DNA of 64,000 nucleotides from a virus (IMGVR_UViG_3300023174_000135); one strand, 5' to 3'. Shown: positions 3,646 to 64,000, counted from the first letter of the stretch. Program-made: numbers and translations. The notes: a model not told the origin generated them from the letters alone.

Positions 3646-4644
3646 TTAAATTTCAGAAACATATTCAAATATATAACCTTCTTTAGATATTTTTTGGTTT
3701 ATATATTTTTTTATTGTTGTTAATTTTATTTTAAAATATTCACAAGCTTCTGATAAAGAATTAAAGTTCAAAATTTCATCAAATTTTTTGGCTTGTATTT
3801 TTATACTTTTAGTTTTTTTGATAAAATAATTTTTATAATCACCTTTATACTCGTCTGTATAAACCCAAGCAAAAGCATTAGCAGTTTTTCTTTGCTTATT
3901 TAAGCATGACCAAATATTTTTAAAGTTTGTGTTATTTTCTTCACCCGCAGTGACAATATTGTTATATAACTTTTTTTCTCCTAATATATTTATTCTGAAG
4001 AATTCTTTACCAATGTTAGTTGTATTTTGTATCCTGTATTCAAGTTTTTGTTCTATATTCTCTTCATTTTCATGGAAAAAAGTATAATCTTTATTAAATA
4101 ACATTCCATTATTCAAAATGTCTGATATATTTTTAAATGAAATATTTAAATCTTCACTTGCTCTACGAGCATTACTATATTTACCCACAAAATTTTTATT
4201 TTTATCATAACAAATTATTTTTTTACCAGAATTATATGTGGAATTATAAATAGCTTTCTTTGTTTTTTCCGACATTTTTCTTCCTTTACTTTTTTCTCCA
4301 ATTTTTTTCCTCGTCTCCTCAGAAGGATTTTGAAGACCGTCACCACCTTCAGTCATATTTAATAATTTAATTCCCCAAGATTTGAATAACATAATGTAAT
4401 ACTTTTCCCAATAGTCAATTTCAGAATCAAATTCGTCTAAAATAGTAAAAACTGGTTTCAAATTTTCTAAAAATAAATTATTTTTCCATTTTGATAAATT
4501 AGTTTTATAATAATTTTTCTCTTTTCTACAATGATCTTTATATCTACTCTTTGGATTTTTAGTTTTTCCAATATAAACAAGTTCATCCGTTTTTGGATGT
4601 GATAAACAATAAATGTAATTTTTTATAATCGGTAGTTTCTTCAT
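3646..4644 (-). CDS. GIY-YIG homing endonuclease with NUMOD3-like DNA-binding repeats
   Basis: N-terminus IYCLSHPKTDELVYIGKT gives GIY...YIG, with downstream R/H/E/N catalytic positions; repeated SEETRKKIGEKSKGRKMSEKTKKAI-type segments as in free-standing phage GIY-YIG endonucleases such as the I-TevI/Seg family. Confidence 0.75.
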   Translation of the reverse strand: MKKLPIIKNYIYCLSHPKTDELVYIGKTKNPKSRYKDHCRKEKNYYKTNLSKWKNNLFLENLKPVFTILDEFDSEIDYWEKYYIMLFKSWGIKLLNMTEGGDGLQNPSEETRKKIGEKSKGRKMSEKTKKAIYNSTYNSGKKIICYDKNKNFVGKYSNARRASEDLNISFKNISDILNNGMLFNKDYTFFHENEENIEQKLEYRIQNTTNIGKEFFRINILGEKKLYNNIVTAGEENNTNFKNIWSCLNKQRKTANAFAWVYTDEYKGDYKNYFIKKTKSIKIQAKKFDEILNFNSLSEACEYFKIKLTTIKKYINQKISKEGYIFEYVSEI

Positions 4645-4715
4645 TTATTATATATTAAAATTAAATATGTTAAACTTTATTTATTTTTAAAATAAAAATA
4701 AAAAACAAATTTTAT

Positions 4716-5267
4716 ATGAATTTAACAGAATACAAACAATTTGCTGAAAAAACATTATCAACACAATTTCATTCCGATCCTCAATTAGAAAAAATATTAC
4801 ATGCAGCTCTCGGTTTAGCAACAGAAATAGAAGAATTATTAGTTAATTATTCTGGAAACATAGACCACATAAATGTATTGGAAGAAATTGGGGATATCAC
4901 ATGGTATTTGTCTGTATTTTACAGAGAATATCCTGAAATCGAAAATATTAAAGTTACGACAAATTTGGAGGTTAAAACACCTCAAGATTTAATTATGAGT
5001 ATGTTAAAATGTATTTTACAAATACAAGATTTAATTAAAAAGAAACTTTATTATAATAAACCGATAAATCAAGAAGTAATGAATACTTTAGTTGCTACAA
5101 TTGATTCAGATATTAGGATGTATTTAAGCATTTACAATTTAAATATTGAAGAAGTGTGGGAAAAAAATATAGAAAAATTACGTTCACGTTATGGTGAGAA
5201 GTTTTCTTCTGAAAGAGCTATTAATCGTGATTTGGAAACAGAAAGAACTATTTTAGAATCAAAATAA
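4716..5267 (+). CDS. MazG-like nucleoside-triphosphate pyrophosphohydrolase
   Basis: N-terminal LTEYKQFAEKT...ALGLATEIEEL and EIGDITWYL helices match the all-alpha MazG/dimeric-dUTPase-type core. Confidence 0.55.
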   Translation: MNLTEYKQFAEKTLSTQFHSDPQLEKILHAALGLATEIEELLVNYSGNIDHINVLEEIGDITWYLSVFYREYPEIENIKVTTNLEVKTPQDLIMSMLKCILQIQDLIKKKLYYNKPINQEVMNTLVATIDSDIRMYLSIYNLNIEEVWEKNIEKLRSRYGEKFSSERAINRDLETERTILESK

Positions 5268-5290
5268 TATATATACAAAAAAAATTATAT

Positions 5291-5581
5291 ATGAATTTAG
5301 AAGATGCGGAAAAGCAAATTGATAAGGCTGATAGTTTTTTAGATAAACTATGGAAGTTTTTAGGAAAACATTGGGGTAAATTACTTATTATACTTATTAT
5401 TTTTTGTTCTTATAAAGTAGTAAATTTACTTTGGACTGAAATACAAAAAGATGATTCTTTGGATACTGAAGAAGTTACTCTAAAACAAGAGTATTATGAT
5501 TATGATCAAAATGGAGATAGTATTCTAATAAAACAATATAGTGATGGAACATTTGATACTATTTATCATTTTGAAGAATAA
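5291..5581 (+). CDS. small membrane protein (one TM)
   Basis: 96 aa; hydrophobic stretch LLIILIIFCSY; followed by an intrinsic terminator. Confidence 0.45.
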   Translation: MNLEDAEKQIDKADSFLDKLWKFLGKHWGKLLIILIIFCSYKVVNLLWTEIQKDDSLDTEEVTLKQEYYDYDQNGDSILIKQYSDGTFDTIYHFEE

Positions 5582-5590
5582 AAAATATGA

Positions 5591-5617
5591 AAAAAGTTTG
5601 TGAAAACAAACTTTTTT
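5591..5617 (+). terminator. intrinsic terminator
   Basis: AAAAAGTTTGT-GAAA-ACAAACTTTTTT hairpin 10 nt after the stop at 5581. Confidence 0.65.
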
Positions 5618-5619
5618 CG

Positions 5620-5627
5620 TATCTTTA
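5620..5627 (+). promoter_or_regulatory. putative Bacteroidota-type -7 promoter box (TATCTTTA)
   Basis: Near-consensus TAnnTTTG element 23 nt upstream of the ATG at 5650; the same box type recurs upstream of several other genes in the window. Confidence 0.3.
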
Positions 5628-5649
5628 CATAATAAACACATAAAAATAT

Positions 5650-6807
5650 ATGAAATTTTTCTCACTTAACAAGTCAGATTTATCTAAAAAAGTTTTTGCT
5701 GGTATTACATACAACGAAAACTCATTTAAAGGTAGTTTAATGAAGATGCTATCTAATTTTGGTTATACACTTCATAAAAAAACATTTACCGAAGATGATC
5801 AAAATCTTAAAATAGATACATTTGCTGATGGTGAAATGTGTCCTATTTTCCAAAAATCTATAAGAAATGAACATGTAACCATAATGGCAGATGGGCATAG
5901 TTCTGCTGATATTGTAAAATTACTTTTAACCGTTGATGCTGCCAATAGAAGTGGTGCTAAAAAAATTACTGTTATTTATCCATATTTCCCATATGCACGT
6001 CAAGATAAAAATGATCATATTAGATCTTCAATTGGAGCTAAAATGATGGCAAATCTATTACAAAAAGTAGGTGTTAGTCGTATAATTTCAATTGAAATGC
6101 ACTCACCAGCAATTCAAGGGTTTTTTGATATACCAGTTATTCACTTAAATGGTAATCGTATTTTTGGTGAATATGTAAAATCATTAAAACTTGAAAATGT
6201 AACAAACTGCTCTCCTGATCATGGAGCCATTAAAAGAAATTCAGATTTTGCTAAATATTTCCCTGATTGCCTTTCAGCCGTAATTGATAAAAAAAGAAAA
6301 AAACCAAATGAAGTTGCTTCGATGGAAATTACTGGTGAAGAAAATATTCCTGGAAGAAATGTTGTTTGTATAGATGATATGGGTGATACATTAGGAACAC
6401 TTGCTAAATCGGCTGATTTAGTAATGAGCAAAGGTGCTTTATCTTATACGGCTTTTTTAACTCACCCTGTATTAAGTGGCAATGCTTTAAAAAATCTATT
6501 TTACTCAAAAATAACTGAATTGGTAGTAAGTGATACTATATCTTCTGTTTATGATAAAAAGATACAATATAACAAAATGTTAGAAGAAGAAGCATATGGA
6601 AAAGCGGTTAGTGAATTTGAAAATGTAAAATATAGTGAAGAAGCATTTAGAAATCGTCTTTCGGAATTGAGAGAAGAAGTTAAAGCAAATCATGCGAAAT
6701 TTACTATTGTATCTTGTGATAAATTATTAATTAATTCTATTAATAGGATAATTAATAAACAATCGATCAACGAATTAAATAATGAATACCAACCTGTTAA
6801 TTCATAA
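5650..6807 (+). CDS. prs: ribose-phosphate pyrophosphokinase (PRPP synthetase) family enzyme with N- and C-terminal extensions; could equally be a phage Adps-type ADPR-pyrophosphokinase
   Basis: Collinear Prs motifs: FADGE (FSDGE), GAKKITVIYPYFPYARQDKN (RITAVIPYFGYARQDRK), EMHSPAIQGFFDIPV (DLHAxQIQGFFDIPV), IDDMGDTLGT (DDMIDTxGT), THPVLSG. It is about 70 aa longer than cellular Prs and divergent at DLHA (here EMHS) and RQDRK (here RQDKN). Confidence 0.75.
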   Translation: MKFFSLNKSDLSKKVFAGITYNENSFKGSLMKMLSNFGYTLHKKTFTEDDQNLKIDTFADGEMCPIFQKSIRNEHVTIMADGHSSADIVKLLLTVDAANRSGAKKITVIYPYFPYARQDKNDHIRSSIGAKMMANLLQKVGVSRIISIEMHSPAIQGFFDIPVIHLNGNRIFGEYVKSLKLENVTNCSPDHGAIKRNSDFAKYFPDCLSAVIDKKRKKPNEVASMEITGEENIPGRNVVCIDDMGDTLGTLAKSADLVMSKGALSYTAFLTHPVLSGNALKNLFYSKITELVVSDTISSVYDKKIQYNKMLEEEAYGKAVSEFENVKYSEEAFRNRLSELREEVKANHAKFTIVSCDKLLINSINRIINKQSINELNNEYQPVNS

Positions 6808-6809
6808 TT

Positions 6810-6956
6810 ATGGAATTTACATTAATTTTTAATAGTGGTTTATCATTTGAAGATACAATTTCTTTAAATATAAATGCCGCTTCAAAAGAAGAAGCATTGG
6901 AAAATGCTTTGACAGAAAACCCCGAATTATCAGGGTGGAATTATATGATTAAATAA
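6810..6956 (+). CDS. small ORF (48 aa) translationally coupled on both sides; absent from the supplied ORF track
   Basis: ATG 2 nt after the prs stop; its TAA overlaps the ATG of the next gene (TAATG); peptide MEFTLIFNSGLSFEDTISLNINAASKEEALENALTENPELSGWNYMIK. Confidence 0.35.
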   Translation: MEFTLIFNSGLSFEDTISLNINAASKEEALENALTENPELSGWNYMIK

Positions 6957-7372
6957 TGAAAAAAACTTATAGTGGTGAGATAAAAAAACTTAAACCTAAT
7001 CAAGCATTTTTATTTGGCTCTAACACTGAAGGTAGACATGGTGCTGGTGCTGCTAAATTTGCTATGAAATATGGTGCTATTTACGGACAAGCAAAAGGTC
7101 CAATGGGTCGTTGTTATGCTATAATAACAAAAGATTTGACTAAAGGAAAACATCCGTCAATAGCACGAGATTATATTATTCAACAAATAGGTGAATTTTA
7201 TGAATTTGCTAAAAAGTTTTGGAATATAGAATTTATTGTTCCATATTCTGGTGAAGCAAATAAAAAAAATTTAAGTGGTTATACAAATTTAGAAATAGCT
7301 GAAATGTTTAATTCATTTGATATACCGGAAAATGTAATCTTCGAAAAAGAATTTAATAAATTAATAAAATAG
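6956..7372 (+). CDS. hypothetical protein with glycine-rich loop (FLFGSNTEGRHGAGAAKFA)
   Basis: 138-aa ORF; the glycine-rich loop suggests a nucleotide- or phosphate-binding Rossmann-like fold; family not identified. Confidence 0.5.
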   Translation: MKKTYSGEIKKLKPNQAFLFGSNTEGRHGAGAAKFAMKYGAIYGQAKGPMGRCYAIITKDLTKGKHPSIARDYIIQQIGEFYEFAKKFWNIEFIVPYSGEANKKNLSGYTNLEIAEMFNSFDIPENVIFEKEFNKLIK

Positions 7373-7378
7373 ATATAG

Positions 7379-7786
7379 ATGTTATATAGAAGTAGAACCG
7401 ATTGTGGTATCGGTGGTGTTTGTGGTGGCTTAGGTAAGCATTTTGATATAGATTCAACCATTATAAGATTTATAGCGGTTTTATCTTTATTAGCGGGTGT
7501 TGGTTTAATACCTTATTTAATTTTTTGGTTTATAACTCCATTAGAAAACGATTTAAATTTTGAATATATGCAAACAAGTCAAGTTATCAACAACTTTGTT
7601 AAGTTTTCCGAAGAAATAACTCCGGAAATATTTCAAGAAATTTTTGGTGAAAATAAGGGTATGAAATATTATCAAAATATTTTCTTTGCTACTTTTGATA
7701 AAAATATGCCAAAATTTATTGCTTCTTTAAATGAAGTAGATAGAGAATTAATTTTAAAGTATTTTGATGAAAATTTTTGCAGCTAA
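7379..7786 (+). CDS. PspC-domain membrane protein
   Basis: [53 protein letters not shown] closely matches the PspC N-terminal domain consensus ([30 protein letters not shown]...llYlilWiilP). Confidence 0.65.
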
Positions 7787-8060
7787 CCGATTATCAAATG
7801 GAAATGGTTTATTTCCATTGCAAATCATTATAGATGATATTGGTGTGACTATTAGAAAACCAGGTCTAATTGCCGCAGCAGAAAAAACTATATCCTATAA
7901 TATAATATCTTCAGTTGAATTACACACACCTATTCTTGGGTTTACAAAAATTAAAATAAATTCTATTGGGTTAGATTCAACTTTGGCTGAAGGTTTTGAA
8001 AGATATGATGCTGAAACTATTCGTGATTTAATTTACCAATATAAAAAGATATGGAAGTAA
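7764..8060 (+). CDS. hypothetical protein
   Basis: 98-aa ORF overlapping the previous gene by 23 nt in another frame; no motif. Confidence 0.4.
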
Positions 8061-8139
8061 AGGGTAAAATTGGTGTTAGATATAATGTAGCTACTTCTGA
8101 GTCTATAAAAAACTCCTTTTAAATAAAATATATAAGACT

Positions 8140-8409
8140 ATGAAAACACTTATACTATTTTTTTTATTAATATTTTTTTATGGATGTAATTCAAAAATAA
8201 ATACCACTTGTGAAACAAAAATTAAAGAATTAAGAGATTCTATATCAATTCAATCGGATTCAATTAAAAAATTAGATCATGAATTATTTGATAATAAAAT
8301 TGAACTATTTTATAATAAAATTGAACTTGATAGATATGAATATATTTTTAATGAATTAGAATTAGATACATTTTGTAAAACTAAAATAGAAAATATACGA
8401 GTAGAATAA
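8140..8409 (+). CDS. small lipoprotein
   Basis: MKTLILFFLLIFFYGCNS gives a signal peptide plus lipobox Cys, in a style typical of Bacteroidota lipoproteins. Confidence 0.5.
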   Translation: MKTLILFFLLIFFYGCNSKINTTCETKIKELRDSISIQSDSIKKLDHELFDNKIELFYNKIELDRYEYIFNELELDTFCKTKIENIRVE

Positions 8410-8495
8410 TTTAATAGACAATTTTTAAAAACTTTCATAGAAATATGAAGGTTTTATTTTTCGAATTTAATATATAAATAAAATTAATATAAATA

Positions 8496-9077
8496 ATGGA
8501 AAATAAAATAATGAATTTTGAACAATTTCTTTTAGAAAAGAAAAGTGAAAAATGGATGCAAAAAGCATTTAATCCTGCACATAAAGGAGAATTACATAAA
8601 TTGTTAGATGTGCCAGAAGATGAAGATATTCCTATGTCTAAAATAAACGCTGAATTAAAAAAATTAAAAGGTAAAGAAGATTTAAGTAAAAAGGAATTAT
8701 CTTTATTGAGAAAATTAAATTTAGCTAAAACTGCTAAAAAAATTACAGAGTCGGAAGAATTAGAATTTTGCCCTGATTGTGGTCATGATTGGGATGAATG
8801 TCAATGTGTAAAAAATAATGAAGAGTATTCTTTTTTGGATGAAGAAGATGAAATTGAGGAAATAGATGAAAAGAAAAAATTAAATAAAGGATTACAAGCG
8901 TTTTTAGATAAAAAAGCTGGTAAAAAAACAGACAAAAAAGAAGATAAAGAAGATAAAGAAGGTAAAACACCAACTACAAAAAAAGAAAAAGAATTAGCAG
9001 CAAAATATCCACCAAAAGATAAAATAACAAGAGGTGATGTAATTACAGCAGCTAAAGAAAAATCAAAAAAGAAATAA
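8496..9077 (+). CDS. Lys/Glu-rich protein with CPDCGHDWDECQC cysteine cluster
   Basis: 193-aa ORF; highly charged; short putative metal-binding Cys/His cluster. Confidence 0.5.
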   Translation: MENKIMNFEQFLLEKKSEKWMQKAFNPAHKGELHKLLDVPEDEDIPMSKINAELKKLKGKEDLSKKELSLLRKLNLAKTAKKITESEELEFCPDCGHDWDECQCVKNNEEYSFLDEEDEIEEIDEKKKLNKGLQAFLDKKAGKKTDKKEDKEDKEGKTPTTKKEKELAAKYPPKDKITRGDVITAAKEKSKKK

Positions 9078-9307
9078 TGTTTGTTAAAAAATTTGAAAAT
9101 TTTGAATTAAAACTTAAAGTAAATATGGTTATGATGTCACATCTGAGTGATTTACAAGATGGTTATGAATTTATGGATTCAATTGATTTTAATAATAAAA
9201 TAAATTTTATTAAACATTTAATAATTAAATATCCAGATACGGACACATCAATAAATGCAGATTTAGAATGGGAAGAATTCAAAAAAACAAGATTTTATAG
9301 ACAATAA
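9077..9307 (+). CDS. hypothetical small protein
   Basis: 76-aa ORF whose start overlaps the previous stop (TAATG); followed by a terminator. Confidence 0.4.
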   Translation: MFVKKFENFELKLKVNMVMMSHLSDLQDGYEFMDSIDFNNKINFIKHLIIKYPDTDTSINADLEWEEFKKTRFYRQ

Positions 9308-9317
9308 AAATTTTATT

Positions 9318-9343
9318 AAAAACTCGTAATTTACGAGTTTTTT
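9318..9343 (+). terminator. intrinsic terminator
   Basis: AAAACTCGTAATTTACGAGTTTTTT palindrome plus T-run after the stop at 9307. Confidence 0.65.
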
Positions 9344-9535
9344 CTTTATCTTTGCTTTATGAAAAATAAACTTAAAAATATAGAAAAAACTGCTCAAAGA
9401 AAATTAGCCATAGAAGCTGGATTTTATGATGGTAGATACAAGAAAAGAGTGATTCCGGATAAAAAGAAAGCGGAATCTAAAAAAAGGATTAAAGTGGAAT
9501 TTTAAACTTTTTGCTCGCTTTGTCATATAAATACT

Positions 9536-10075
9536 ATGAAAAGAGAGAAAACGAAACTTACCGTAAATGATATTTTAGATTTTTTTGCATCAAAACCTGT
9601 ATTTGATAGATCTAATACTGATTCTTTAACAAAATTTGGTTGGGCTTCAACCAAAGAAGGTTTATATAATATAACTGATATTTATACTTTTTTTGAGGAA
9701 AAAGGTTTTGATAAAAATGATGTTCAAGATTTTTTCCACAAATTTTTACAATTAAAAGTATTCAATAATACTAAATTAGAAAAAGGCAAAACTTTTATTA
9801 ATGTTATTTATGTGACAAATTATAATCCAGATTACCGTCAAAATAAAAGATATTTAGAGGCAGTATATTATTATATGGATATAACACATGAAAAAGCAAA
9901 GCAGTTAAAATCTGAATATGAGGCTGAAAGTTTATCGCAAATGCAAGTTTTTATTGATAAGAAAAATACTAAAAAACCTGTAAATAAATCAGCAGCTAAA
10001 CAACAAAAAGAAACCAAAAAAATAACCAAAACAAGACTTAAAAAAACACCTAAAATTGAAATTTTAGCAGCTTAA
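9536..10075 (+). CDS. hypothetical protein with basic Lys-rich C-terminal tail
   Basis: 179-aa ORF; KKxxK-rich tail suggests nucleic-acid binding; no family recognised. Confidence 0.5.
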   Translation: MKREKTKLTVNDILDFFASKPVFDRSNTDSLTKFGWASTKEGLYNITDIYTFFEEKGFDKNDVQDFFHKFLQLKVFNNTKLEKGKTFINVIYVTNYNPDYRQNKRYLEAVYYYMDITHEKAKQLKSEYEAESLSQMQVFIDKKNTKKPVNKSAAKQQKETKKITKTRLKKTPKIEILAA

Positions 10076-10106
10076 AAATAAATTTGTTTATTTCAATTTT
10101 TTTTCT

Positions 10107-10114
10107 TATATTTG
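10107..10114 (+). promoter_or_regulatory. putative -7 promoter box TATATTTG
   Basis: Exact TAnnTTTG match immediately upstream of the Nudix gene; implies the true start codon is the ATG at 10118 or 10166. Confidence 0.3.
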
Positions 10115-10525
10115 TATATGTTTGTTAATTTAGATATTGCGTATTCTTACCCTAAAAAGGGTGCTATGGTTTTACTATTTAATCAAGGTAAAATTTTATC
10201 TGTTTCAAGAAAATATGATCCAACACAAAAGGGACTTATTGGTGGCAAAGTAGACGAAGGTGAGACTTTTTTACAAGCCGCTATTCGTGAAGCAAAAGAA
10301 GAAACAGGTTTAGATGTATTTGGATTAATTCCAATTTTTAGTCGTATTGATGGTGAATTTTTTGCTGTTGTTTATTTAGCACAATGGAAAGGAGAAATCT
10401 ATCAAACCGATAACAAAGAAACAGGGGTTGTTGAATGGGTTGAGTGGGAAGATTTAGAAAATGGTCCTTTTGGTGCTTATAATAAAGCATTACATGAGCA
10501 TATGATAAAAAATAAATTACTATGA
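10112..10525 (+). CDS. Nudix hydrolase; start uncertain (track start is a TTG; ATG at 10118 or 10166 more likely)
   Basis: Nudix box GGKVDEGETFLQAAIREAKEETGLDV matches GX5EX7REUXEEXGU. Confidence 0.75.
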   Translation: MYMFVNLDIAYSYPKKGAMVLLFNQGKILSVSRKYDPTQKGLIGGKVDEGETFLQAAIREAKEETGLDVFGLIPIFSRIDGEFFAVVYLAQWKGEIYQTDNKETGVVEWVEWEDLENGPFGAYNKALHEHMIKNKLL

Positions 10526-11028
10526 AAGAACAAATAATTGAAGCTGTAAATAATGAAAACTGGGATGAAGCATTAAAACTTATAAAGAAAATACAAAATA
10601 AAGATAATTTCATTTTTGGATTACAAAAAGGTTGTATTAATTTATTACATGGATCATGTGACTATGAATTAATGGAACAATTTGAAAATATAGGAGTTAA
10701 AACATTTATTTGTGATACTTTACCAGATTTTCAATCTAAAGTAAGAGATGGTGAAATTAATCCTGAATTGGTAAAAAATGAATATGTTTTAGTAATGACT
10801 AACAAATCTACGGTTATATCAAGATTATTAAGCACAGATAAATGGAAAGTAAATTACTTTAAAATTACTAATAGAAGTCGTAAGGATAACAAAACAAATA
10901 AATATATCACAAATTATACTATAACTTATGATGTTGATAAAAAGCTTTCTTTTAAATCATCGGATAATCAAAATTTTTTGTTAGGATTATTAAGAGAACA
11001 TAGAATAAATAGTATTTTAGAAGATTAA
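10522..11028 (+). CDS. hypothetical protein, paralog A of a tandem pair
   Basis: Shares NWDEALKLIKK, a Gly/Asn core and C-terminal LLREHRINSILED with the next gene (NWDEIIALATQ ... LMRDSRINSILDDL). Confidence 0.55.
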   Translation: MKEQIIEAVNNENWDEALKLIKKIQNKDNFIFGLQKGCINLLHGSCDYELMEQFENIGVKTFICDTLPDFQSKVRDGEINPELVKNEYVLVMTNKSTVISRLLSTDKWKVNYFKITNRSRKDNKTNKYITNYTITYDVDKKLSFKSSDNQNFLLGLLREHRINSILED

Positions 11029-11032
11029 AATT

Positions 11033-11566
11033 ATGGATTATAACGAATTAATACTACAAGCTTTAGAGGAAAAAAATTGGGATGAAATAATAGCTTTAGC
11101 AACACAAGCAAAAAATACCCAACTTGGAGAAGTTTTCTTAGGAATAAGAAAAGGTTATGTAAACTTATTTAATGGATATGATAACTTGTTATATCAAATG
11201 TTTACTAAACTTGGTGTAAAATGTGTTTGGGCCAGAACACAACCGAATTTAAATAAATTAATTAAAAATGGTGATTTGTCATTAGATTTAATTATGAATG
11301 AACCAGTAATTATTTTTTCTGGAAAAGCAACCGTAAATGATAAATTAATGCGATTAAAATGGCCGGTTTGTTTATTTACTAGTAGAGTCAAAACTAAAAA
11401 AACAAAAGAAAAGGATAAAAATGGTTCTTCAATATATGATTATACATATTTTATTAGAAATCATATGACAAATGAGGAAATTTCTTTTAATAGAGAAAAT
11501 AGTGAAAACGCTTTAACAGCTCTAATGCGTGATAGTCGTATTAATTCTATTCTCGATGATTTGTAA
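11033..11566 (+). CDS. hypothetical protein, paralog B of the tandem pair
   Basis: See paralog A; 4-nt spacing from the previous gene. Confidence 0.55.
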   Translation: MDYNELILQALEEKNWDEIIALATQAKNTQLGEVFLGIRKGYVNLFNGYDNLLYQMFTKLGVKCVWARTQPNLNKLIKNGDLSLDLIMNEPVIIFSGKATVNDKLMRLKWPVCLFTSRVKTKKTKEKDKNGSSIYDYTYFIRNHMTNEEISFNRENSENALTALMRDSRINSILDDL

Positions 11567-12158
11567 TCTTGATAATGTTATAATAGCAACTGGTTTGCAC
11601 CCAAGTAGGGTGCAAAATGTATATGTATTTGGTAGTCAAATATATTCAACCGCTACTGAAACTTCTGATTGGGATTTATTAGTTGTAGCAAAAACTCCTT
11701 ATCCTGAAAAAGAAATAGTTGTCGACAATTTTAATATACATATATTAACTTTAGACCGTTTTTTAGAAGGTTTAAAACAACAAAATATAGGTAGAATTGA
11801 ATGTATAATGTCACCTATTATTTTAAAACAAGATATTGATTTCGAATGGAAACTTAACATTCCTGGATTTAGGCATTTTATTTCCCATATTTGTTCTAAT
11901 TCATGGGTAAAATGTAAAAAGAAATTAGAGCAAGGTGATTATTATATAGGTATAAAATCTTTATTTCATAGTTTAAGAATTTTCATATTTGCTACACAAA
12001 TAATAGAATATGGTAAAATAGTTGATTTTACAGCTGCTAATTATATATGGGATAAATTAATATCTAAAACTTGGACATGGCAAGAATTAGATTTAGAATT
12101 TAAACCATTGAGAAATAATTTAATGTCTGAGTTTAGGAAATTAACTTTTAAAAATTAA
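11529..12158 (+). CDS. minimal nucleotidyltransferase (pol-beta-like NTase fold); start uncertain, may lie inside or just after a strong hairpin at 11593-11617
   Basis: VYVFGSQIYSTATETSDWDLLVV matches the G[SG]...D-x-D signature of MNT-type nucleotidyltransferases. Confidence 0.5.
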   Translation: MIVVLILFSMICNLDNVIIATGLHPSRVQNVYVFGSQIYSTATETSDWDLLVVAKTPYPEKEIVVDNFNIHILTLDRFLEGLKQQNIGRIECIMSPIILKQDIDFEWKLNIPGFRHFISHICSNSWVKCKKKLEQGDYYIGIKSLFHSLRIFIFATQIIEYGKIVDFTAANYIWDKLISKTWTWQELDLEFKPLRNNLMSEFRKLTFKN

Positions 12159-14497
12159 CTAACTAATGCTACAGCAGAAAACCAAGTGCCTTCATTAACA
12201 GAACCTCTTTGTATATTTTTAGTGGTTCCAGTTCCTTGATAAGCGGTAAAATCTACATAATCGGTTGTTCCATTTAAATAAATTATTTTACTCCCTGCTA
12301 ATGTTTGCCCTGCGACTGCGGTTGTTGGTTGTTGTATTATCATAAATGTTGTTCCACTTTTTCTAGCTTGTATATTTACTTGTTGGCTAGAAGTTCCTAA
12401 ATTTTCAAACCATACACCAAAATGAATTGTGTAATATGCTGCAACAGTTGGTGTGAAACGATAAGTTGAACCATTCCACCAATTCTGTGGATCAAAATCA
12501 ATAGTAAATTGAATAGTTGTATCAACACCAGAAGGAATTGATTGTGTCGAAGCATTTAATTTACCTTGTGATATATAAGGATTAGAATTTAAAGTTGTGC
12601 CATAAGTTACTAATCCAGTGTTACTATTATAAAATAAAGAATATGTGCCAACTGTTGATTGTGTGATGCTATTTATCGTAATACCTGAGGTAGCTATTAT
12701 CATAGCATTTGTATTATTGGTTTTGAAAACTAAATTATAATTATCATTTGTGCCTAATGTTGCTGTTGCTCCAAAAGAATTACCACCTTGCGCATAATAT
12801 CCCAGAGTCAATGCTGTTGCGCCTACATTACCATTAGTATCGATAAATAAATATCTTGTGCTACCAGTTAGACCATAAATCTGTAAAGTATTTGTAGTTA
12901 ATAAACTTTTAACATAAACAGAATAATCACTATTAACTGTAAATAAAGGTAAACCTGATATAGCATTAACTGTAAATAATGAACCTGTTAAACCATCTAC
13001 AACAGAGAATAATTGACCTGATGAACCATTTATATTAATAAGAGTTGAACCACTTACAGTTGAAGAAATATAAATTGAGCCAGATAAACCTAATTGACTA
13101 GTTGAAGGGTTAAATGTTAAGTTATTAACTGCAATAGCATTATTTACAGAGTTAGTAGCAATTAATAAACGGAATGGTGCTGGATTAGATATTATGTTAG
13201 TTAAAGCAGCATTATATGATAATCTACCAGTAGTAGGGTCTACTGTAACACTATAAGTTGAACTTGATGTTTGTATTAGTGGTAAATAAAATTGACCAGA
13301 TATAGAAGCTGAACCAGTAACGTCTAAACTATAAGAAGGTGATAAATTATTTATACCCACATTACCCGCAGTTGTGATATTTATTCTAGGTAAACCACCG
13401 TTATATAAACGAAGTTGATTTGAAGCACTTACTAAATACATTACATTTGAATTATCTAATGTAATAGATTGTCCTGCATCAACTCTAATTTCACCACCTG
13501 CAACATATAATTTAGATATAGAAGCAGTGCTACCTAAACTAACAAATCCATTATTAAGTATATTTAATAGAGGTGTGTTAGCACTATTCTGCACTAAAAA
13601 TGATGTTGTAGTCGACGTGGTACCACTACCAACAATTAATACTTTTTGTGTATTAGTTGATGATGTGCCAATACTAATATTACCAGAAGTTGCTATTATT
13701 AATGCTGGTATACTATTTGTTTCTAATACTAAATTATAATTATCATTTGTTCCAAACATTGCTGTTGCACCAAATGAGTTACCACCTTGAACATAAAATG
13801 AAGCGGTTGAAGGTAATGGACCTTGTGGACCAGTTAAACCCTGGAATCCTTGGAAGCCCTGTACACCTTGGAAGCCTTGTGGTCCAGTTAAACCTTGGAA
13901 ACCTTGGAAACCTTGTGGACCAGTTAAACCTTGGAATCCTTGGAAACCTTGTGGACCAGTTAAACCTTGGAATCCTTGGAAACCTTGTGGACCAGTTAAA
14001 CCTTGGAATCCTTGGAAACCTTGTGGACCAGTTAAACCTTGGAATCCTTGGAAACCTTGTGGGCCAGTTAAACCTTGTAAGCCTTGAACTCCTTGGAAAC
14101 CTTGTGGTCCAGTTAAACCTTGTAAGCCTTGAACTCCTTGGAAACCTTGTGATCCAGTTATTTGAGATGACCTTTGTGTTACCCAATTATTACCGTTACT
14201 TAAAAGCCTAACACTATCATATTGACTTAATGAATAAGTAAAACTATTATCGATAGTTTGTGAAGCGGTACCTATAATTGAAATAACACCAGAACCACTA
14301 TTTTTCAAAACATATGACCTATTGTAATTTGGAGTAGGAGATACTGCTGTCGGTAAAACAACAGAAAAAGATCCTGATAAGCAATCAATAAAATAATCAT
14401 TGTCAGTAGGTATATAAGATTGTGTAATTCCTTTGTATGAGTAGTAAACACCACCCATTACAATCATACCATTTTTTATTACTAGTTCATTAGCCAT
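12155..14497 (-). CDS. collagen-like fibre protein with C-terminal C1q/TNF-like globular domain (BclA-like architecture) and duplicated GNSFGATA modules
   Basis: About 38 uninterrupted G-X-Y triplets (GPQGFQGLT...); C-terminus YYTIHFGVWFENLG...VNIQARKSGTTFMII...LNGTTDYVDF...TWFSAVALVS follows C1q/TNF jelly-roll spacing; the C-terminal module is shared with the genes at 29138 and 34631. Confidence 0.7.
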   Translation of the reverse strand: MANELVIKNGMIVMGGVYYSYKGITQSYIPTDNDYFIDCLSGSFSVVLPTAVSPTPNYNRSYVLKNSGSGVISIIGTASQTIDNSFTYSLSQYDSVRLLSNGNNWVTQRSSQITGSQGFQGVQGLQGLTGPQGFQGVQGLQGLTGPQGFQGFQGLTGPQGFQGFQGLTGPQGFQGFQGLTGPQGFQGFQGLTGPQGFQGFQGLTGPQGFQGVQGFQGFQGLTGPQGPLPSTASFYVQGGNSFGATAMFGTNDNYNLVLETNSIPALIIATSGNISIGTSSTNTQKVLIVGSGTTSTTTSFLVQNSANTPLLNILNNGFVSLGSTASISKLYVAGGEIRVDAGQSITLDNSNVMYLVSASNQLRLYNGGLPRINITTAGNVGINNLSPSYSLDVTGSASISGQFYLPLIQTSSSTYSVTVDPTTGRLSYNAALTNIISNPAPFRLLIATNSVNNAIAVNNLTFNPSTSQLGLSGSIYISSTVSGSTLININGSSGQLFSVVDGLTGSLFTVNAISGLPLFTVNSDYSVYVKSLLTTNTLQIYGLTGSTRYLFIDTNGNVGATALTLGYYAQGGNSFGATATLGTNDNYNLVFKTNNTNAMIIATSGITINSITQSTVGTYSLFYNSNTGLVTYGTTLNSNPYISQGKLNASTQSIPSGVDTTIQFTIDFDPQNWWNGSTYRFTPTVAAYYTIHFGVWFENLGTSSQQVNIQARKSGTTFMIIQQPTTAVAGQTLAGSKIIYLNGTTDYVDFTAYQGTGTTKNIQRGSVNEGTWFSAVALVS
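13807..14161. repeat. 27-nt periodic direct repeats encoding collagen G-X-Y triplets
   Basis: Near-identical units ccttggaatccttggaaaccttgtggaccagttaaa repeated about 13 times in the coding sequence. Confidence 0.85.
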
Positions 14498-50947: not shown

Positions 50948-51499
50948 ATGAAGAAAAACTTTGGATATAAAATTGTAGATACTAAACCTTTACAAGAAGG
51001 TATTAGTTTTATATTAAACTTACCTAAAAAGAAATATAAGTTTGATAGAAAACATGCTTTGGCATCATTGGCTCAAACTAATACTAAATGTGTTTGTTGT
51101 GGAGTTGAGGGCACTAAATTTTGTTTAGGTGAAGATAAAGCAAAACAATTACATTGGGATTTTTATGCTAACGATGGGATTGCTTTAACAATTGATCATA
51201 TTTTACCAAAAGCAAAAGGTGGAACAAATGATTTTGAAAATCTGCAATTAATGTGTTTAGAATGTAATAATTTGAAAATGCATATACCTGAAAGAATTGT
51301 TGGGTATAAAAAACTTTTAGAATTATTAAATGGTAAATCAGAAGTTAAAGTAACACTTAAGAAAACCCCATTTATTCGTATTGATTATTGGAAAAAACTA
51401 TCTGATGAAATCTTCTTTGAGATACAAGATTTCTTTCATGAAGAAGAATTATTTGATGAGGATTGTGGATTTCAATATGTCTATTATTTTAAACATTAA
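50948..51499 (+). CDS. HNH endonuclease
   Basis: CVCCGVEG...LTIDHILPKAKGGTNDFENLQLMCLECNNLK is an HNH motif with Zn-binding Cys pairs. Confidence 0.7.
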   Translation: MKKNFGYKIVDTKPLQEGISFILNLPKKKYKFDRKHALASLAQTNTKCVCCGVEGTKFCLGEDKAKQLHWDFYANDGIALTIDHILPKAKGGTNDFENLQLMCLECNNLKMHIPERIVGYKKLLELLNGKSEVKVTLKKTPFIRIDYWKKLSDEIFFEIQDFFHEEELFDEDCGFQYVYYFKH

Positions 51500-63845: not shown

Positions 63846-64000
63846 AATTTTTCTTTTTATTTTTTAATGTTTACCTATTTCTTTTTCTGAATGTCCGCAA
63901 CCATGATTGGCTGTTTTTTCGTGCAAGTAATCTATAATTGCTAAGATTAAAGCGCCTAAAAGAAATATACTATGTATGATTAATTGATTTTTTAAAATTT

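Follow-up and report, generated by a model that had tools for sequence, protein, structure and literature searches.

A predicted PRPP synthetase and a divergent macrodomain protein in an accessory gene block of a low-GC jumbo phage

The viral sequence IMGVR_UViG_3300023174_000135, of which a stretch of 64,000 nucleotides was analysed (the window), carries between 4.7 and 11.6 kb a set of accessory genes that includes a member of the Prs family. These genes probably constitute a genuine phosphoribosyl pyrophosphate (PRPP) synthetase within a nucleotide-precursor accessory block, accompanied by a co-transcribed macrodomain protein, rather than an operon of the NAD+ reconstitution pathway NARP1. 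The latter had been the lead of the original prediction, which was made from the sequence and held that the Prs-like enzyme at 5650-6807 might be an ADP-ribose (ADPR) pyrophosphokinase of the Adps type. On the account favoured here, the enzyme would convert ribose-5-phosphate and ATP to PRPP and AMP, with two clade-specific insertions at its surface, and would raise the supply of PRPP for nucleotide, and possibly NAD, synthesis during infection. A MazG-type NTPase encoded upstream, together with a dUTPase in relatives, would give this enzyme its nucleotide-precursor context.

The source of the window is a low-GC jumbo phage: its G+C content is about 24-34%, its genes recur on a contig of 291,723 bp, and genes for a glutaminyl/glutamyl-tRNA synthetase and for homing endonucleases, with an extended run of structural genes, surround the 4.7-11.6 kb region. 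Approximately 82 kb of this 291.7-kb genome was covered, comprising the 64-kb window, 9 kb upstream of it (contig L090) and 8.7 kb downstream (contig L171, 8.9 kb in length). The open reading frames (ORFs) at 4716-5267, 5650-6807, 6810-6956, 6956-7372, 10112-10525 and 44389-44865 all exist as originally described; genes in the window lie on the plus strand unless marked otherwise.

The Prs-family enzyme

The 385-aa product of 5650-6807 was identified as a ribose-phosphate pyrophosphokinase by TIGR01251 (241.1 bits; cutoff 113), exceeded the Pfam cutoffs for PF13793 (86 bits), PF14572 (42 bits) and PF00156 (29.6 bits), with E-values of 1.8e-24 for Pribosyltran_N and 1.2e-10 for Pribosyl_synth, and matched the Bacillus subtilis Prs structure 1dkr at 9.2e-55, bearing out the proposed membership of the Prs family. 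Its score against NF002320 was 265 bits, under that model's stricter cutoff of 297. The protein was compared with Escherichia coli Prs and Adps references in a MAFFT alignment, and was also aligned to 1dkr and 4s2u. Like these two class I enzymes, it has a two-domain phosphoribosyltransferase fold by Pfam, and keeps the catalytic His with IQGFFDIPV (HSPAIQGFF), the flexible-loop DKKR (DKxR), SPDHG (SPDxG), the DDMGDTLGT ribose-5-phosphate loop (DDxxDTxGT) and the C-terminal helix. By contrast, all five Adps references (PBES 02, REP9 of Felixounavirus, ICP1, Zuko and Pakpunavirus CAb1), each with a Nampt/Namat-like gene immediately after it, have DPHS..., K.R(D/N)L.TG.I and DDICDGG(R/A)T, and lack the C-terminal helix. 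This motif distinction, in which a DDICDGG-like loop is accompanied by loss of both the DTxGT loop and the C-terminal helix, is an empirical one drawn from those five references. A check with regular expressions separated Prs from Adps as the alignment did, and put the window protein on the Prs side.

The same division emerged from a neighbour-joining tree of 311 alignment columns, in which 200/200 bootstraps set the five Adps apart from every Prs, the window protein among them, and 0/200 grouped the window protein with Adps. The window protein was 35.5% identical to E. coli Prs and 48-58% identical to Prs-like proteins 313-331 aa long, against 21-25% for Adps. The third line of evidence comes from gene content. 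NARP1 is defined by an enzyme of the Adps clade with an adjoining Namat gene, and for 97% of Adps a Namat gene lies no more than 10 genes away (10.1101/2024.02.11.579819). Five Namat/Nampt queries found no such partner in the window (best tblastn E 0.24), as the original prediction had noted, and none was found in the 9 kb upstream or the 8.7 kb downstream. The candidate identity of the enzyme as Adps was rejected because of the tree, the motifs and the lack of a Namat in the 82 kb. The placement within Prs, with the ribose-5-phosphate loop intact, is largely the outcome that the original prediction had itself named as counting against its proposal; its further requirement, that NAD-salvage partners be missing from the rest of the genome, was checked over about 82 of 291 kb. 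Hence 5650-6807 is, as judged by its sequence, a genuine class-I-type PRPP synthetase and not Adps.

Nevertheless, it differs from the class I enzymes in about 70 extra residues, in two motifs and in belonging to a divergent, phage-borne subclade with 35% identity to E. coli Prs. The substitutions of DLHA by EMHS and of RQDRK by RQDKN reported in the original prediction are present, and are conservative (D to E, R to K) in the alignments; in most relatives the first motif is ELHA, and the Lys of RQDK does not vary among them. The long N- and C-terminal extensions also reported proved to be two internal, lineage-specific insertions, at about aa 21-50 and aa 305-350, which together add the 70 or so residues. 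The true termini align with those of E. coli Prs, MKFFSLNKSDLSKKV with MKLFAGNATPELAQRI at the N-terminus and ...SINELN with ...SISAMF at the C-terminus. Some relatives have longer Prs proteins of 471-482 aa (P0022, P0027, P0028 and P0042; L174:10001-11416 and L001:5571-7019), in which an additional, degenerate copy of the N-terminal half is fused upstream of the complete enzyme, giving a second tblastn match 34-38% identical to aa 1-179 of the window Prs.

The macrodomain protein and the gene order around Prs

The gene at 6956-7372 encodes a 138-aa protein, originally described by its Gly-loop, that had no Pfam match at E <= 0.01, including to the Macro families PF01661, PF14519 and PF20016, and no useful PDB sequence match. 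It belongs to NCBIfam NF049995, the "A1S_2505 family phage non-structural protein" (89.5 bits; cutoff 45), and to PHROG 2072 (2.4e-28), in which function is unassigned. An AlphaFold2 model from a 44-sequence alignment reached a predicted local distance difference test score (pLDDT) of 95.4 and a predicted template-modelling score (pTM) of 0.89, and a Foldseek comparison with the PDB returned essentially only macrodomains, including TTHA0132, YmdB, an alphavirus macrodomain, DarG, TARG1 and Poa1p. The predicted structure settles the fold as that of a divergent macrodomain, and with it the protein most likely binds and hydrolyses an ADP-ribose derivative. In BFVD, the same domain is found inside giant proteins of crAss-like phages, one of them annotated with an ART-PolyVal (ADP-ribosyltransferase) domain, a co-occurrence that provides independent support for the putative link to ADP-ribose. 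The family is widespread: 279 clusters were retrieved, including the domains inside crAss-like giant proteins, and it is common without Prs.

The nearest functional guide is AdfM of PhiKZ, an experimentally validated DarG2-like phage de-ADP-ribosylase, whose active site contains N23 and K78, corresponding to N22 and K80 of DarG2 (PMC13309987). In a MAFFT alignment, these two AdfM residues aligned with the family-invariant N23 and with K59 of the near-invariant IITKD; hhalign backed the Asn/Gly-loop region alone, at low probability. The motifs GAG.A and TKD...PS were common to AdfM and the A1S_2505 family alignment. Unlike DarG2, AdfM and human TARG1, all Lys-dependent ADP-ribosyl hydrolases, the window protein is about 25 residues shorter and lacks the stretch linking helix 1 with the Lys strand. 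It is also unlike Adpp and yeast Poa1p, being missed by the Pfam Macro models used to define Adpp and having neither Adps nor Namat as neighbours, and its loop sequence differs from the NCFxTMGSGIA of the Adpp-like macrodomains in loci L008 and L019. The macrodomain would act either on an ADP-ribosyl adduct of DNA or protein, as DarG2, AdfM and TARG1 do, or on ADPR-1''-phosphate, as Poa1p and Adpp do; with either substrate, it could counteract ADP-ribosylation by the host or immunity that cleaves NAD.

Between Prs and the macrodomain gene lies a 48-aa ORF (6810-6956), whose tblastn homologues are 53% identical in L174, 45% in L001 and 48% in L173, where it forms part of a fused 98-aa ORF. This micro-ORF is a real gene, because it is conserved directly after Prs in these three divergent megaphage relatives; gene calling also predicted it in L009 and L090. 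The close spacing originally reported was confirmed: start and stop codons abut or overlap, the Prs TAA being separated by 2 nt from the micro-ORF ATG, and the micro-ORF running into the macrodomain gene through a TAATG overlap. The three relatives, which are L173 (a 316 kb contig; Prs 66% identical), L174 (777 kb; 47%) and L001 (42%), share the order of Prs, a homologue of the micro-ORF, small ORFs, the macrodomain gene (52-63%) and, farther on, the Nudix gene (64-72%). A PspC-domain membrane protein is encoded next in the window (7379-7786; PF04024, 5e-19), and L173 and the contig of P0013 likewise have a PspC gene after that for the macrodomain. However, the A1S_2505 macrodomain adjoined Prs in this clade alone and in 0/80 other viral Prs loci. 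A linkage limited to one clade is accounted for by vertical synteny no less well than by shared function. Hence the suggestion that the micro-ORF and macrodomain proteins are functional partners of Prs gains from a maintained gene order, which vertical inheritance within a single phage clade would account for just as readily.

Upstream of Prs, the relatives have genes for handling nucleotides. A dUTPase/dCTP deaminase gene precedes Prs in L173, L174 and L001; in L173 and the P0013 contig, the dUTPase is followed by a MazG-type dATP-dGTP pyrophosphohydrolase, both upstream of Prs. A gene of the MazG or phosphoribosyl-ATP pyrophosphohydrolase (PRA-PH) type occupies the slot upstream of Prs in L010 (PRA-PH/MazG), L011, L077, L173 and P0013, and FolD is encoded near Prs in L077. 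By this gene content, the setting of Prs in the relatives is a predicted nucleotide-precursor context.

The original prediction treated the genes from 4.7 to 11.6 kb, with the CoaD-like gene, as one nucleotide and NAD module. The genes are present, although they probably do not form a single unit. A palindromic terminator-like hairpin with a 13 bp stem lies between orf96, paired with the MazG-like gene, and Prs (5589-5618, no strand assigned), and another, with an 11 bp stem and a T-run, separates the Prs-macrodomain genes from the Nudix gene (9318-9342, plus strand); the scan detected 9 terminator-like sites where 1.6 were expected. Because of these two hairpins, the block is probably divided into three transcription units, containing MazG, Prs with the macrodomain, and Nudix respectively. 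The CoaD-like gene (44389-44865) is 37 kb from the block, on the other side of the structural genes.

NAD islands, partner enzymes and competing explanations

The remaining enzymes of the proposed module were characterised with differing firmness. The MazG-like all-alpha NTP pyrophosphatase (4716-5267, 183 aa) matched PHROG 229, "MazG-like pyrophosphatase", at 9.4e-23, and EIEEL...LEEIGD motifs were recognised by reading of its sequence, but it had no Pfam, NCBIfam or PDB sequence match. This call, made from PHROG alone, is held more weakly than those of the Nudix hydrolase (PF00293, 7.4e-21) and the CoaD-like protein (PF01467, 3e-12), which both stood. The Nudix protein (10112-10525, 137 aa) reached no NCBIfam equivalog, scoring 36 bits against 97.9 for MutT, and 22 against 248 (NF008003) and 21.7 against 79.6 (TIGR00052) for the ADPRase models; its PDB matches were a weak mix of MutT, CoA and ADPR types. 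At 64-72% identity in L001, L173 and L174, it is better conserved than Prs (42-66%) or the macrodomain (52-63%), which suggests a strong constraint on its function. It is probably a separate, well-conserved, small MutT-like enzyme that is separately transcribed.

The 158-aa CoaD-like adenylyltransferase shares the GSFNP, NPxK, RGLRN and ISSS motifs of CoaD, or phosphopantetheine adenylyltransferase (PPAT). Its best PDB match was PPAT (4.6e-14, against 0.0035 for nicotinic acid mononucleotide adenylyltransferase, NaMNAT), and its nearest family was the PPAT equivalog TIGR01510 (88.6 bits, 4e-25), despite a score below the cutoff of 103.3. Models of NaMNAT and of nicotinamide mononucleotide adenylyltransferase (NMNAT) gave at most 24 bits (cutoffs 112-329). 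It departs from CoaD in this sub-cutoff score, in its HxGH motif, which is TIAH (FTIAH where homologues read FHKGH), and in the linkage of such genes to Prs or NAD islands in some phages. CoaD-like homologues stand directly upstream of Prs in 10/80 Prs loci, and in 77 CoaD-like loci Nampt lay close by in 12 and Prs in 8; no NAD genes were nearby in the closest homologues (L094-L114, 39-77% identity). A role for this protein as the NMNAT of a Prs/Nampt pathway was considered, and is weakened by coexistence with NadM-Nudix in L019 and L020, by the NAD-free surroundings of its closest homologues and by the poor NMNAT scores. From these matches, it is taken as PPAT-like and not as the NMNAT of the pathway. 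An MgtC-family gene (45235-45678; PF02308, 3.4e-32) is located near it, and the same order of CoaD-like gene then MgtC was seen in the NAD-island loci L039 (8738-9635), L041 and L043, but not in L094, whose CoaD-like protein is 77% identical. On the P0013 contig, the genes that come after Prs include one of nucleoside 2-deoxyribosyltransferase-like type and a DFP (CoaB/PPCS-like) gene, which hints at phage-encoded steps of the CoA pathway in this clade.

The wider distribution of phage Prs was surveyed in 80 IMG/VR loci whose Prs-type genes are 32-47% identical to that of the window, and in which neighbours were counted within 10 kb; these counts are lower bounds, as many contigs are incomplete. 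SIR2 was a neighbour in at least 43/80 loci, Nampt in at least 38, Thg1 in at least 33, NadM-Nudix in at least 29 and a PF01661 Macro gene in at least 25, and the island domains were confirmed by Pfam in L019 and L039. Of 27 Nampt-linked loci, 23 had the Prs-type ribose-5-phosphate loop, and none the Adps-type loop. Judged by these motifs, the Nampt-linked loci are NARP2-like islands with predicted true Prs enzymes. An island of NadM-Nudix, Nampt, Macro, SIR2, in some cases CoaD-like and MgtC genes, Prs and a Thg1-like gene recurs in L019 (1490-12076), L020, L027, L040, L051-L053, L061-L065 and L073, and the Thg1-like (tRNA-His guanylyltransferase-like) gene is a consistent member. Homologues of the window's Prs, CoaD-like and MgtC genes are found inside such islands, which are characterised by NadV with NadM-Nudix and often Macro, SIR2 and Prs. 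In contrast to these islands, NadV and NadM were not found in the 82 kb, nor were SIR2 or Thg1 genes, the window gave no NatV-like match, and the genes of the window are dispersed. The general theme of nucleotide and NAD-ADP-ribose metabolism proposed for the block is supported, and is strengthened by the recognition of the macrodomain and by the recurrence of Prs and CoaD-like homologues in NadV/NadM-Nudix/Macro/SIR2 islands, while its specific NARP1/Adps lead is not. A 2022 survey of viral NAD-ADPr systems, which did not discuss Prs, put the share of jumbo phages with a Macro domain at 56%, with NadV at 33% and with one or more network components at 85% (PMC9503650). Because of the 56% and 85% base rates, a macrodomain and a Nudix hydrolase in a jumbo phage are to be expected.

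Several explanations compete with that of a PRPP synthetase in a nucleotide-precursor block. Were the block a NARP1 counter-defence, the Prs-like enzyme would act as Adps on ADPR, the macrodomain would be Adpp, and a Namat encoded elsewhere would complete NAD+ reconstitution. The window Prs does share with Adps of the Bas63/SPbetaL1 type its superfamily, its phage origin and, to a degree, a following small ORF and macrodomain gene, which recalls NARP1-AP, where the Poa1p-like Macro phosphatase Adpp is inserted between Adps and Namat (10.64898/2026.01.28.702374). This resemblance is superficial: the kinase belongs to the wrong clade and carries Prs motifs in place of DDICDGG, the Namat that accompanies nearly all Adps is missing from the 82 kb, and the macrodomain is PF01661-negative and of another type. 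Adpp is recognised as a Macro gene within two genes of an Adps and Namat pair, and neither of these two was present in the 82 kb. We consider NARP1 extremely improbable. Less remote, although still unlikely, is a NARP2-like NAD+ salvage fed by PRPP, in which Prs would supply a Nampt (NadV) encoded outside the window, thereby restoring NAD+ under NADase immunity, with the CoaD-like protein or a NadM-Nudix elsewhere adenylating NMN, and the Nudix and macrodomain proteins recycling ADPR. The island counts, the prevalence of Prs-type over Adps-type enzymes beside Nampt, the CoaD-like genes next to Prs or Nampt and the frequency of NadV in jumbo phages all favour it. However, Nampt, NadM, SIR2 and Thg1 are lacking both from the window and its flanks and from the 10 kb around Prs in the closest relatives (L001, L010-L012, L077, L173 and L174), the CoaD-like protein scores as PPAT and is not the NMNAT in L019 and L020, which have NadM-Nudix for this step, its closest homologues are without NAD genes nearby, and the CoaB-like DFP gene of a relative fits a role in CoA synthesis.

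A further explanation is that ADPR is recycled to PRPP: the macrodomain would free ADPR from ADPR-1''-phosphate or from targets carrying ADP-ribose, the Nudix hydrolase would convert it to AMP and ribose-5-phosphate, and Prs would form PRPP, with the 48-aa protein as adaptor or regulator. The chemistry of these steps is established for each superfamily concerned. The flux link so proposed draws on the order of Prs, micro-ORF, macrodomain and Nudix being kept where Prs is just 42-66% identical, on start and stop codons that abut or overlap, on a second, unrelated Macro family that likewise lies near phage Prs genes in NAD islands, and on the ADPRase role of NadM-Nudix (PMC9503650). Yet the co-occurrence is restricted to one clade in which vertical synteny would suffice, no A1S_2505 gene was found in the 80 other Prs loci and that family is widespread without Prs, and the Nudix gene belongs, by prediction, to another transcription unit and its product fits no ADPRase model; we judge recycling to be quite unlikely. 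As an extension of it, the trio of Prs, 48-aa protein and A1S_2505 macrodomain might, with Nudix, constitute a third way in which phages answer immunity based on NAD cleavage or ADP-ribosylation, a doubtful proposal. Such an answer might operate through ADPR freed from ADPR-1''-phosphate or from ADP-ribosylated phage DNA or protein, regulation of Prs by the micro-protein, and use of PRPP for resynthesis of nucleotides or NAD, although we regard these steps as speculative and improbable too.

The favoured account of a PRPP synthetase with a co-transcribed macrodomain has evidence weighing against it as well. At least 38 of the 80 Prs loci have Nampt nearby, and a Nampt/NMNAT pair outside the 82 kb could recast Prs as an enzyme of NAD salvage. 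The divergence of this Prs clade, with D to E and A to S changes near the catalytic His, RQDR to RQDK and two insertions, may go with an altered acceptor specificity. For the macrodomain, the PADLOC DarG model did not match (the AdfM control scored 4.4e-39), hhalign comparisons to TARG1, AdfM and an Adpp-like macrodomain were non-significant, and the Pfam Macro models missed the protein.

Phage context and significance

Beyond the Nudix gene, two tandem paralogous ORFs of 168 and 177 aa (10522-11566, comprising 10522-11028 and 11033-11566; 31% identity, 4.7e-24) had no family match in Pfam, PHROG or PADLOC. They are followed by a Pol-beta-fold nucleotidyltransferase of about 200 aa (11529-12158; PF18765 and PF01909 at about 1e-5; MntA-like at 1.4e-5, below cutoff). 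The next gene (12155-14497, minus strand) encodes a protein of 780 aa that carries long collagen-like repeats (GFQGLTGPQ) and is probably a tail fibre; it is 729 aa in L009, and therefore repeat number differs among assemblies. Homing-endonuclease genes of the GIY-YIG, HNH and NUMOD types are scattered among the accessory genes (3646-4644, minus strand; 43563-44405 and 50948-51499, plus strand), with more upstream (L090:2071-2679 and 4630-5727). The position taken by the dUTPase in relatives, directly upstream of the MazG-like gene, is here occupied by one of them. Just upstream of the window is a class-I (Gln/Glu-type) aminoacyl-tRNA synthetase gene (L090:5832-7346; L173:139-1686), and relatives have RF-1-domain genes, a combination typical of very large phages. 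Contig L171, read as its reverse complement for about 8.7 kb past window position 64000, contains a DeoC-like (deoxyribose-phosphate aldolase) ORF, recognised by eye from MKLNKYIDHTLLK, which would add one more gene of pentose and nucleotide metabolism, and an ORF with an intein-like segment. INPHARED phage records held no close relative, the best being 45-51% identical proteins from the uncultured, unannotated megaphages LR745206 and LR756502.

The accessory genes form a fairly typical jumbo-phage block, made up of known kinds of gene. Its analysis guards against an error of annotation, as phage genes described as Prs-like are not all Adps, and simple marks split the classes here: DDxxDTxGT, HxxxIQGFF and the C-terminal helix for Prs, and the DDICDGG-type loop with an adjoining Namat for Adps. 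By such marks, large phages commonly encode predicted true PRPP synthetases, whether in nucleotide-precursor blocks or in NadV/NadM-Nudix/Macro/SIR2 islands. The most useful lead is the fold assignment, with the conserved Asn/Lys pair, of the unannotated A1S_2505 family. Were the trio and Nudix truly a third answer to such immunity, this would assign a function to a widespread family that is also represented in crAss-like polyvalent proteins. Its macrodomain fold, and an Asn/Lys pair that may be placed like that of DarG2 and AdfM, make the A1S_2505 family a candidate widespread phage de-ADP-ribosylase or hydrolase of ADPR derivatives.

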